Shown here: positions 1,034-24,819 of the stretch, piece by piece
How positions within the stretch are numbered: the stretch's first letter is position 1
How the letters are laid out: every line of letters starts with the position of its first letter
DNA from: Candidatus Omnitrophota bacterium
GTDB lineage: Bacteria > Omnitrophota > Gorgyraeia > Pluralincolimonadales > Pluralincolimonadaceae
NCBI GenBank assembly: GCA_003141835.1
Contig: PLNR01000008.1
Span: 132,472-196,471 of the forward strand
Length of the DNA stretch: 64,000 bases
Reading direction: 5' to 3'
The notes under the pieces: generated by a model
What the model was told of the DNA's origin: nothing
Databases searched by the model: none
Seen by the model: the letters and a program-made list of their open reading frames with translations, nothing else
Position numbers and translations under genes: made by a program

Positions 1034-2194
1034 CTATTTGCCCATTCCGACCCTTTGGACCTGTTGGAATATCTTCCCTTCCGTCTTGATCGACGGGGCT
1101 ATTATGATCTCTGTCTTCTGGAATTCTTTTATGCTCGAGGCCCCGACCGAACCCATGGATGTCTGCAGCGCGCCCATCAGGTTTTGGGAACCGTCGTCGA
1201 ACCTCGCAGGCCCGAATAATATTTCTTCGAGCGTGCCTGTCGTCCCGACATGTATCCTCGTGCCGCGGGGTAGATTTGCGTGCGGTGTGGCCATTCCCCA
1301 ATGGTAGCCGCGCCCCGGCGCTTCTATCGCGCGGGCGAAAGCCGAACCGACCATGACCGCGTCAGAACCGCAGGCGAAGGCCTTGCAGATGTCGCCGCCT
1401 GTCCTCATCCCGCCGTCGGTTATTATGGGGATATATTTCTTGGTCTTCTTGAAGAAAGCGTCCCTTGCCGCGGCGCAGTCTACCGTCGCCGTGACCTGCG
1501 GGACGCCGATGCCTAAGACGCCTCTTGTCGTGCAGGCGGCTCCGGGACCGATGCCTACCAATATCCCTGCGGCGCCGGCAACCATCAGCTCGTATGCGAC
1601 CTCATACCCGACGCAATTACCGACGATGACCGGGATCTTTGAGGACTTGGCGAATCTCTTGATATCGAGCGCCTGGTATTCCTTGGATATATGTTTGACC
1701 GTGCTGACCGTCGATTGTATGACAAATATGTCGGCGCCGGATTCCTGGGCGATCTTGCCGAACCTTTCGGCGCGCTGCGGGATGGCGCTCACTGCCGCCG
1801 GGACGTCCGCGTCTTTTATCTGGCGGATGCGCTTCTCGATCAACTTTTCCTGGATCGGTTTAGTGTATATAGATTGGATTATCTCTGTGGCTTTTTCCGG
1901 GTCTGCCCTGACAAGCTGTTCCAGGACTTCGTCCGGGTCCTCGTACCTAGTCTGGACGCCCTCGAGGTTCAGGACCGCGATGCCCCCGAGTTTCCCCATG
2001 GCGATGGCGAACTTGACGTCTACCACGCCGTCCATGGCAGCAGCCAGGATCGGGACGTTGAATTTTTTCCCGTCAATTTTCCAAGTTGTGTCGACTTCGG
2101 CGGGGTTGATCGTGACTCTTCCGGGGGCTAACGCGATTTCATCGAACCCATAACAGCGGCGGGCCTTACGTTTGATGCCTATATATTCACTCAT
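1034..2194 (-). CDS. IMP dehydrogenase/GMP reductase family protein lacking the CBS subdomain (probable IMPDH)
   Basis: The 386-aa ORF has a TIM-barrel IMPDH core with the catalytic loop GIGPGAACTTR and no ~120-aa CBS pair insertion. It lies immediately upstream of guaA. SD AAGGAGG lies 8 nt before the ATG. Confidence 0.8.
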   Translation of the reverse strand: MSEYIGIKRKARRCYGFDEIALAPGRVTINPAEVDTTWKIDGKKFNVPILAAAMDGVVDVKFAIAMGKLGGIAVLNLEGVQTRYEDPDEVLEQLVRADPEKATEIIQSIYTKPIQEKLIEKRIRQIKDADVPAAVSAIPQRAERFGKIAQESGADIFVIQSTVSTVKHISKEYQALDIKRFAKSSKIPVIVGNCVGYEVAYELMVAGAAGILVGIGPGAACTTRGVLGIGVPQVTATVDCAAARDAFFKKTKKYIPIITDGGMRTGGDICKAFACGSDAVMVGSAFARAIEAPGRGYHWGMATPHANLPRGTRIHVGTTGTLEEILFGPARFDDGSQNLMGALQTSMGSVGASSIKEFQKTEIIIAPSIKTEGKIFQQVQRVGMGK

Positions 2195-2224
2195 CTAGCA
2201 GGAACCTCCTTGAAATAGGGTTAT

Positions 2225-2253
2225 ATGATACAAAAATCCCCGCTAAAAGTCAA
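2225..2253 (-). promoter_or_regulatory. sigma70-type promoter for the IMPDH-family/guaA operon
   Basis: The minus strand reads TTGACT (2253..2248), a 17-nt spacer, then TATCAT (2230..2225), about 30 nt upstream of the SD and ATG at 2194. Confidence 0.55.
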
Positions 2254-2259
2254 GGAAAT

Positions 2260-2580
2260 CAGAAGGCGATTTAAGACCGGGCGGGTCCTGCCTGCCGAGC
2301 ACCTCGCCCCTTTTGCTTCGGGCAAAAGGGCCAAGGGCTCCGTCGGCAGTCACCCGCTTGAACCAAAAGCATCGGTCGCAAATTCATTGCTCGGAAAACG
2401 AGGGTCTTTTGCCCCTCATCGCATTGGAAAGACTCGAGCGGGCACGGATCCCGAGAGAAGCGAGGGAGAGCGAGAGTATTTCAAGCGGCGCGGGCCTCGC
2501 AGGGGCCCGCAAGCGCGCGATGAGGGGAAAAGAACCCGAGTTTTAGACCGCTGTGAATTTGCGGCCGGACTTTACGAATA
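2260..2580. ncRNA. candidate structured non-coding RNA or large imperfect palindromic element (unclassified)
   Basis: The region is GC-rich and non-coding in composition. A long imperfect helix pairs 2377-2422 with 2517-2563 (cgcaaattca/tgaatttgcg, gcccctcatcgc/gcgatgagggg, ggaaaacgagggtctttt/aaaagaacccgagtttt). It encloses a ~94-nt apex containing the hairpin gcgcgggcc-tcgcagg-ggcccgc and a purine tract gagagaagcgagggagagcgagag. A further hairpin sits at 2297-2340. The only ORF here is a 118-aa low-complexity Arg/Lys/Gly-rich frame on the plus strand. Confidence 0.3.
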
Positions 2581-2583
2581 AAT

Positions 2584-2621
2584 ATAAAACGCCCCCTGAT
2601 TATGCATCAGAGGGCGTTTTT
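2584..2621 (-). terminator. bidirectional rho-independent terminator downstream of the groES-groEL-groES operon
   Basis: Stem cgccccctgat (2590-2600), loop tatgc, stem atcagagggcg (2606-2616). It is flanked by an A-run on one side and TTTTT on the other, giving a U-tract on either strand. It starts 15 nt after the groES stop. Confidence 0.75.
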
Positions 2622-2635
2622 GTATCCTGCTTGAG

Positions 2636-2923
2636 TTACTTGACTATCGCGAGGATGTCGTCAGCGTCGATTATCAGGTATTCCTTATCATCGACCTTGA
2701 CTTCGCTGCCGGAATATTTCCCGAAGATGATTATATCCCCGGCCTTTACGTCCGGCGCGACTACCTTTCCGTTCTCGAGAGTCTTGCCCGAGCCGACTGC
2801 GATGACTTTCGCTTCCTGCGGCTTTTCTTTCGCAGTGTCAGGAATGATTATCCCGCCTCTGGTCTTATCTTCGGCCTTTAGCACCTCGACGATAACTTTA
2901 CCGCCTAACGGTTTCAAGTTCAT
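2636..2923 (-). CDS. groES: co-chaperonin GroES (second, operon-distal copy)
   Basis: 95 aa: [14 protein letters not shown]...[25 protein letters not shown]...ILAIVK. The mobile loop is intact. SD AGGAGG is placed 17 nt after the groEL stop. Confidence 0.9.
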
Positions 2924-2940
2924 GTATCCTCCTTATAGGT

Positions 2941-4578
<1,638 letters not shown>

Positions 4579-4595: not shown

Positions 4596-4883
4596 TTATT
4601 TGACTATCGCTAAGACTTCCGATTCCCTTAATATTAAAAGATCTTCCCCTTTATAGTTGATCTCGGTGCCGCCGTAACGGCCGTAAAGGACCGTATCCCC
4701 GGCCTTCACTTCCAGTTCCTTAATCTTTCCGTCATCCAGGAGCTTGCCTTTACCAACGGATACTACCTTTCCCTTGGACGGCTTCTCCTGCGCCGTGTCC
4801 GGCAGGATTATCCCGCCCTTTGTCTTCTGTTCCTGATCCAGGGGCTTGACCAAAATCCTGTCACCTAACGGTTGAACCGCCAT
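4596..4883 (-). CDS. groES: co-chaperonin GroES (first, operon-proximal copy)
   Basis: 95 aa: MAVQPLGDRILVKPLDQEQKTKGGIILPDTAQEKPSKGKVVSVG...VLAIVK. SD AAGGAGG lies 7 nt before the ATG. Confidence 0.93.
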   Translation of the reverse strand: MAVQPLGDRILVKPLDQEQKTKGGIILPDTAQEKPSKGKVVSVGKGKLLDDGKIKELEVKAGDTVLYGRYGGTEINYKGEDLLILRESEVLAIVK

Positions 4884-24742: not shown

Positions 24743-24819
24743 TGGTCGGGGCGAGCGGACTTGAACCGCTGACCACTTGTACCCCATACAAGTGCTCTAC
24801 CAAACTGAGCCACGCCCCG
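24743..24819 (-). tRNA. tRNA-Pro (anticodon GGG), CCA encoded
   Basis: The 77-nt cloverleaf was folded manually. Acceptor 7 bp CGGGGCG/CGCCCCG, D-stem GCUC/GAGC, anticodon stem CUUGU/ACAAG with loop AUGGGGU (G37), T-stem AGCGG/CCGCU, TPsiC-like loop UUCAAGU, discriminator A and CCA. An extended -10 TGATATAAT (24851..24843) lies about 25 nt upstream. Confidence 0.85.

Follow-up and report, generated by a model that had tools for sequence, protein, structure and literature searches.

A 195-nt intergenic element at positions 2373-2567 (+ strand) of a 64,000-nt stretch of Candidatus Omnitrophota DNA (the whole of which is called the window here) is a candidate for a new structured RNA family. The element folds and its fold is conserved through compensatory change, and what can most safely be said of it is that purifying selection maintains a folded RNA, acting on its shape and on two loop sequences. 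The element does not look like 6S RNA, is non-coding and is no leader, and the strand on which it acts is, we infer, the + strand. The 195-nt core appears to define a small family of folded RNAs that had not been catalogued before and that is, to date, known from Candidatus Omnitrophota alone, the phylum from which all MAGs carrying the closest loci also come. That 2373-2567 (+) encodes a free-standing structured small RNA of a family that is not in Rfam 15 has, in our estimate, about an even chance of being right.

Omnitrophota is a large uncultured phylum consisting mostly of very small cells, and a literature search found no reports on Omnitrophota non-coding RNAs. A covarying RNA that is absent from Rfam and whose purine-rich loop is rigidly conserved offers a tangible starting point for studying RNA biology specific to this lineage. 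Should the family gain members beyond these five and remain single-copy, it will make a new Rfam family; if it proves to be multi-copy and mobile, it will be an unusual repeat with selection on its fold rather than on its termini.

The locus and the fold of the element

The first-pass annotation had called this region the only sizeable non-coding stretch, which is roughly right: at 441 nt (2195-2635) the gap is the largest in the window, the next-largest gaps between ORFs of at least 90 aa being 229-255 nt long. The region had also been described as GC-rich, which holds to a modest degree (G+C of 0.59-0.60 vs 0.53 for the window), the element exceeding its flanks by 6-17 points. On the - strand, the gap is preceded by groES (4596-4883), groEL (2941-4575) and a second groES, groES2 (2636-2923, Cpn10), and is followed by the gene of a 386-aa IMPDH-family protein (the IMPDH-like gene, 1034-2194). 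The groES intrinsic terminator, an inverted repeat (I3, 2586-2620, listed without a strand), stands on one side of the element, and the sigma-70-like promoter of the IMPDH-like gene (TTGACT-17-TATCAT, 2253-2225, - strand) stands between the element and that gene. In L081, a locus without the element, this promoter has hexamers and spacing identical to those of the window, the terminator-promoter-gene layout is the same and the IMPDH-like protein is 83% identical; the distance from terminator to promoter is ~100 nt there and ~320 nt more in the window, the difference being the conserved unit together with a hairpin described below. This places the element outside the two - strand transcription units that flank it, so that it is not the leader of the IMPDH-like gene, in agreement with the first-pass annotation, which had placed it upstream of the -35/-10 of that gene.

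The surroundings of the element have several features of their own. The groEL gene of the window is located between two 95-aa groES genes that are 47% identical to each other; the groES-groEL-groES order is also present in L006, L007 and L081, a groES downstream of groEL is also found in L010, L025, L082 and L083, and groE genes are commonly linked to the IMPDH-like gene across Omnitrophota. A Logan contig (L161, run SRR7151659) that is 100% identical to the window covers positions 2539-4396 and stops within the element, at window position 2539, where a long inverted repeat would be expected to interrupt assembly. The closest relative with sequence upstream of the IMPDH-like gene, L010 (86% identity), has in its region 1730-4000, between groES2 and the IMPDH-like gene, a gene for a 522-aa TPR membrane protein and 700 nt of non-coding DNA, the latter rich in inverted repeats of the 'gtcattgcgaggaacgaagtgacgaagcaatc' type. 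The idea that the element is a pseudogene remnant of this TPR gene was rejected, as no similarity of the gene to the element was seen.

The 2225-2590 region folds on the + strand with -163.7 kcal/mol (z = -6.1) and on the - strand with -157.8 kcal/mol (z = -5.3), and none of the dinucleotide shuffles folded as well on either strand. The long helix with its perfect blocks, the 94-nt apex, the GC hairpin, the purine tract and the separate hairpin are all present where they had been described at first reading. The arms of the long helix (2395-2422/2517-2544 and 2373-2386/2554-2567) are inverted repeats that are 82-93% complementary, contain the blocks cgcaaattca/tgaatttgcg and gcccctcatcgc/gcgatgagggg and have inner ends 94 nt apart. 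What had been taken as one element spanning 2260-2580 has to be divided: the unit at 2373-2567 is conserved, and for the hairpin at 2281-2357 the searches returned no relatives.

The conserved unit (2373-2567, + strand) is, from its homologues and their covariation, a 195-nt candidate three-way-junction RNA made up of the helical parts P1, P2 and P3, and its ends form a perfect 10-bp inverted repeat. The 5' arm of P1 (2373-2422, + strand) consists of the closing stem CGCAAATTCA, a tandem G.A internal loop (CGAG) and the block GCCCCTCATCGC, and its 3' arm (2517-2567, + strand) runs from GCGATGAGGGG to TGAATTTGCG. P1 is ~50 bp long in the window lineage; in the diverged copies of the Omnitrophota genomes L026 and L027 it measures 11+8+3+5 bp and 16 bp plus an A/U helix, respectively, and is built from different sequence, including an A-tract and a U-tract that swap sides.

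The P2 arm (2427-2482, + strand) has a base helix (GAAA-G-ACUC / GAGU-A-UUUC), a tandem G.A, a GC/GC step and a conserved internal loop, the 5' side of which is the 12-nt sequence GAGCGGGCAYGG (2436-2447, + strand), identical in all five known copies, and the 3' side of which is the invariant GAGCGA (2468-2473, + strand). This loop is purine-rich and is framed by tandem G.A pairs. Beyond it lies a variable tip hairpin (2448-2467, + strand) that measures 19 nt in the window, 38 in L162 and 63 in L163 (the two metagenome contigs described in the next section), is a 3-bp stub in L026 and is absent from L027. The P3 arm (2485-2516, + strand) is composed of a GCG/CGC base, an internal loop, the stem GCGGGCC/GGCCCGC and a 7-nt loop; its hairpin (2490-2510, + strand) lies in the apex, where the purine tract is also found, with a stem of 7-9 bp across the members and a loop, UCGCAGG in the window (2497-2503, + strand), that reads NCGCWGG in all lineages. 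In L163, the P3 loop holds a 75-nt insertion that folds by itself.

Just 5' of P1 lies a short block, GCTTGAACCAAAAGCA (2356-2371, + strand), found only in the three near-identical copies, where its counterparts are GCTTCAACCAATAGCA in L162 and GCTTAAATCACACAAGC in L163. Between the conserved unit and the promoter of the IMPDH-like gene sits hairpin 1 (2281-2357, listed without a strand), a lineage-specific 77-nt imperfect palindrome (z = -4.1) formed by the repeats 2302-2316/2322-2336 and extended by 2289-2298/2343-2352. It had no relative in 163 loci or in protein-translation searches, and the whole 2260-2372 stretch that includes it has no counterpart in L162 or L163. Hairpin 1, being conserved in no other copy, was thus rejected as a part of the RNA. 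L162 has a hairpin of 100 nt (184-283) in the corresponding position that is unrelated to hairpin 1.

When the whole window was compared with the 4227 models of Rfam 15 at gathering thresholds, the only match was a tRNA at 24746-24819. With E up to 10, the 2150-2680 region gave four matches of 15-18 bits to sRNA and miRNA models with thresholds of 50-80 bits, and L162, L163, L026 and L027 gave nothing relevant. The proposal of the first-pass annotation that the element is a structured regulatory RNA of no known class is thus borne out by the lack of an Rfam match and by helices that are kept by compensatory changes in diverged relatives.

Relatives and compensatory change

Searches with blastn and nhmmer against 160 neighbourhoods of IMPDH-like genes (80 from genomes and 80 from metagenomes) gave no match to the element, which at first suggested that it is not conserved, a conclusion that was later overturned by a covariance model. 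The way to the relatives led through the + strand ORF of 118 aa (2225-2581), which is open across the whole element and matches two database proteins, P0001 and P0002. If these were genuine proteins, the element would be a gene for a basic protein. The two matches, however, are ORF calls over the same DNA element on short metagenome contigs, L162 (787 nt) and L163 (868 nt). A 1-nt indel and tips that differ in length by 19 and 44 nt disrupt the frame relative to the window, the N-terminal part of P0002 is read in another frame, and L026 and L027 keep the helices and no reading frame. A HMMER profile search, run exhaustively against 1.84 billion representative proteins with the +0-frame alignment, yielded P0001 and P0002 alone, the same two were the only relatives among 5.8 billion clustered proteins, and the ORF has no Pfam match. 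The broken frame refutes the coding reading, which the first-pass annotation had left to a test of conservation and which we now hold to be highly improbable. The protein-based search is also a weak census of the element, since the window's own ORF is absent from the protein collection.

L162 and L163 both carry a near-invariant copy of window positions 2373-2567 in unrelated surroundings. Over all shared alignment columns, the three cores are 88-92% identical, and they differ mostly at the two hairpin tips. The L162 copy is flanked by the 3' ends of the convergent ksgA and pyrE genes. Directly past the ksgA stop codon, L162 contains CCCTCATCGCGCG (95-107), the exact reverse complement of 13 nt in the 3' arm of the unit ~350 nt downstream; it may be left over from a second copy, serve as an alternative pairing partner or have arisen by chance. 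In L163, the left flank (1-164) has 58% G+C vs 39% in the right flank and showed no significant fold and no Rfam match.

A first covariance model (R1), confined to the apex and built from the three near-identical copies alone, matched L026 at 3404-3527 (31 bits, E ~5e-4 in 0.8 Mb) and L027 at 3050-3152 (17.7 bits). In both Omnitrophota genomes, the diverged copy lies upstream of the IMPDH-like gene and is oriented as in the window, and both copies hold GAGCGGGCAYGG and GAGCGA exactly. In 1.15 Mb of Omnitrophota and Verrucomicrobiota loci plus the window, GAGCGGGCAYGG with a downstream GAGCGA is found only in the five members, and by our own estimate ~0.01 such co-occurrences are expected by chance (2.3 Mb, both strands). 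A second model (R2), which includes L026 and L027 and in which the hairpin tips and insert columns were cut by hand, so that it is fit for searching and not for statistics, scored these two at 51.6 and 78.5 bits, respectively; with the speed filters off, it revealed no further member in any fetched locus or elsewhere in the window. The members range in length from 134 to 316 nt, and the z-scores of their folds are -6.9 for L162, -9.0 for L163, -4.6 for L027 and -4.8 for L026.

Plasmid and phage collections gave no blastn match to the element, and an exact-core search of viral contigs gave 0 matches. A search of the viral contigs with the loop pattern gave 77 matches, which by our own estimate is about the number expected by chance, and the matches that were inspected lie inside long ORFs or score at most 25 bits, with that in the IMG/VR contig L179 being intergenic. 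Located between an integrase gene and the next gene (1489-1568, - strand), this L179 site has GAGCGGGCACGG..GAGCGA with a flanking 8-bp helix, resembling the P2 module, and is probably a chance site: among ~72 chance pattern matches there are 3 distinct P2-like cases, with ~1 expected.

Covariation among homologues, named by the first-pass annotation as a check, was evaluated on a model-derived alignment of the five sequences, MAFFT having misaligned the diverged members and hence not being used. In this alignment, which was fitted to the model and is therefore biased towards the structure, 94.1% of cells are paired, and at 23 of 39 pairs both partners have changed with pairing retained. When the registers are slid by 1-3 columns, 34-59% of cells pair, and 0 of 500 shuffles match the observed value on any of five measures. 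The base of P2 has 7 of its 10 pairs changed on both sides with 98% of cells pairing, and the P3 stem has 5 of 9 pairs changed on both sides with all cells pairing, its GCGGGCC/GGCCCGC being replaced with GAAUUUCC/GGAAAUUC in L026 and with GAUUUGCUC/GGGUAAAUC in L027. Helix sequences, junction nucleotides and hairpin tips all vary among the members, and the structured tips of variable length and the 75-nt insertion fall exactly at hairpin loops. The support from covariation is good but thin, coming as it does from five sequences that represent three independent lineages. The combination of helices that change by compensatory substitution with loops that are invariant implies selection on a folded molecule with specific loops, rather than on the recognition of terminal repeats.

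Strand, transcription and mobility

The folds of the five copies point to the + strand as the functional one, and we consider it probable that this is so. When the shared structure is imposed, the + strand is the more stable in all five copies, by 1.7-9.6 kcal/mol, and unconstrained folds also favour it. In the apex, there are 5 G.U against 2 A.C; additional U.G pairs occur in P1, including two in the window that are permitted on the + strand only. The four CGAG sites form tandem G.A pairs on the + strand and U.C mismatches on the - strand, and G exceeds C in five of the five units.

The alternative is that the - strand functions, either as a 3'-UTR or read-through element or as a long-range leader or attenuator of the operon of the IMPDH-like gene. 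The copies of the window, L026 and L027 are indeed all upstream of the IMPDH-like gene or its operon and oriented alike, and on the - strand the element closely follows groES2 (by 55 nt), pyrE (~10 nt), a 1062-aa ORF (~90 nt) and tRNA-Val (~5 nt). In L027, P1 ends ~15 nt from the ribosome-binding site of a CT398-like gene, and a small hairpin, CCUCUU/AAGAGG, might mask this site. That the element recurs upstream of the IMPDH-like gene is suggestive: by our own estimate, the chance that L026 and L027 match the window in side and orientation is ~1 in 16, in loci that were chosen for the IMPDH-like gene. Since L026 and L027 were found only within neighbourhoods of that gene, the link to it is in part a sampling artefact. 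A function of the - strand has to contend with a fold that is weaker in all five copies, where tandem G.A pairs turn into U.C/C.U mismatches and U.G into C.A, and with the location of the window element between a strong terminator and a conserved promoter, i.e., between transcription units. In L026, a promoter-like TTGACA-17-TAAAAT likewise stands between the element and the gene, and in L162 only the antisense ksgA end lies downstream. On balance, we regard a functional - strand as unlikely, and the + strand is considered in what follows.

If the + strand is the functional one, the RNA would be transcribed on its own, divergently from the IMPDH-like gene, rather than act in cis as a leader. 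Its 5' and 3' ends would pair as P1, closing a three-way junction with two arms, of which P2 would present GAGCGGGCAYGG opposite GAGCGA and P3 would present NCGCWGG. The transcript may end either at P1 and the U-rich tract that follows it or at the shared terminator 2586-2620, which, with an A-tract and a T-tract on its two sides, could thus also stop a + strand transcript ~20 nt past P1. Neither a + strand sigma-70 promoter nor an intrinsic terminator common to the five copies was found, and a terminator-like U-run past P1 is present only in L027 and L163. The unit of L027 begins 20 nt from the start codon of a divergent gene, and its promoter would therefore lie inside that gene. Back-to-back promoter-like sites with a common -35 region are present in L026 at 3803-3852: the + site, TTGACA-17-TAAAAT, faces the IMPDH-like gene, and the - site, TTGTCA-16-GATAAT, faces the RNA unit at a distance of 245 nt. 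A similar but weaker + strand site, TTGAAA-16-AAAAAT, is present in the window at 2210-2237.

The variation of helices and junctions, the dispensable tips and the sealing of both ends by P1 suggest a stable trans-acting RNA that uses its loops as a binding surface. Judging by this architecture, the two conserved loops of such a stable RNA may form a docking surface for a protein or another macromolecule, as do the loops of 6S, Y and SRP RNAs, and the small RNA probably binds a protein. A trans-acting seed formed by the invariant loop was also considered and rejected, as the window holds only chance-level targets: the complement of the loop, CCRTGCCCGCTC, occurs there at chance frequency, and its best site is inside a 661-aa ORF.

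The distribution of the unit could also be that of a short non-autonomous mobile element of the MITE, REP, ERIC or PATE kind, which folds as DNA or as a single-stranded DNA or RNA intermediate and inserts in intergenic DNA beside gene ends, any transcript being a by-product. In L081, L006 and L007, groES2 is followed by the IMPDH-like gene with 140-210 nt between them and no element, and L031 has the tRNA-Val, CT398-like gene, IMPDH-like gene order of L027, also without the element; the absence from L081 and L031 at the same layout means that the unit is gained or lost as a block. The three near-identical cores occur in three unrelated contexts, with a lower G+C content around the L163 copy (0.45 vs 0.53), the copies lie from a few to ~100 nt past the end of a gene or tRNA or its terminator, and the 10-bp inverted repeat of the unit ends and the 13-nt inverted fragment near the L162 copy would both be at home in a mobile element. 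Insertions at fixed internal positions are also known from ERIC-type elements. On the other side, a single copy was detected in the 64-kb window, both by blastn and by the unfiltered covariance model, and L026 and L027 have one each in their 9-kb loci. There is also no target-site duplication or common target sequence at the three clade-1 junctions and no transposase nearby, and between lineages the helices change compensatorily while the loops stay invariant. The P2 tip of L163 has 30% G+C in a copy whose core is near-identical to that of the window, which argues for long residence under purifying selection rather than recent spread. We therefore regard mobility of this kind as improbable, if worth keeping in mind.

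A self-contained RNA or single-stranded DNA machine of a new kind, such as a small ribozyme or a self-mobilising structured element that inserts directly past gene and tRNA ends without an adjacent protein gene, would jointly explain the core in unrelated contexts, its presence and absence at syntenic sites and the selection on its fold. The GAGCGGGCAYGG/GAGCGA and NCGCWGG loops would then be the active or recognition core. We consider such a machine quite unlikely. The immediate neighbours of the copies are groES, the IMPDH-like gene, ksgA, pyrE, tRNA-Val, the CT398-like gene and the unannotated 1062-aa ORF. Omega RNA (of IscB/TnpB), IS110 bridge RNA and retron msr-msd were set aside as identities of the element, no partner protein gene being found among these neighbours.

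Comparison with known systems

ERIC, REP and MITE repeats resemble the element in being imperfect palindromes with inverted ends that are located just past gene ends, vary in presence among related genomes and have length variants with insertions at fixed internal points. Unlike these repeats, the element was not seen in multiple copies, has no target-site duplication and shows compensatory stem changes around invariant loops.

The purine riboswitch aptamer shares with the element a P1 that closes a three-way junction with two hairpin arms, and three of the five copies are near a gene of the purine-metabolism type (the IMPDH-like gene). In contrast to the riboswitch, however, the junction nucleotides of the element vary and its arm loops are conserved; the element is located upstream of the promoter of the gene, most likely on the opposite strand, and the L162 copy lies between convergent genes. 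A riboswitch or other cis-acting leader was thus rejected, given the conserved promoter between the element and the IMPDH-like gene and the preference for the + strand.

6S RNA is rod-shaped, and its large central bubble mimics an open promoter. The element is in the same size range, its 5' and 3' ends are likewise paired in a long interrupted helix, and it appears to be a free-standing gene, not a leader. The 6S-like character ascribed to it by the first-pass annotation was not upheld: instead of a bubbled rod, the element forms a three-way junction whose two arms lie side by side and carry conserved purine loops, and none of the 6S models matched it at E up to 10.

Comparative genomics of G+C-rich intergenic regions, of the Breaker/Weinberg type, has reportedly yielded orphan structured motifs of bacterial non-coding RNA. 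The element differs from these motifs in matching 0 of the 4227 Rfam 15 models and in having five representatives so far. It is like them in that it is intergenic and richer in G+C than its flanks, has covarying helices and conserved loop nucleotides, and is narrow in its phylogenetic range.
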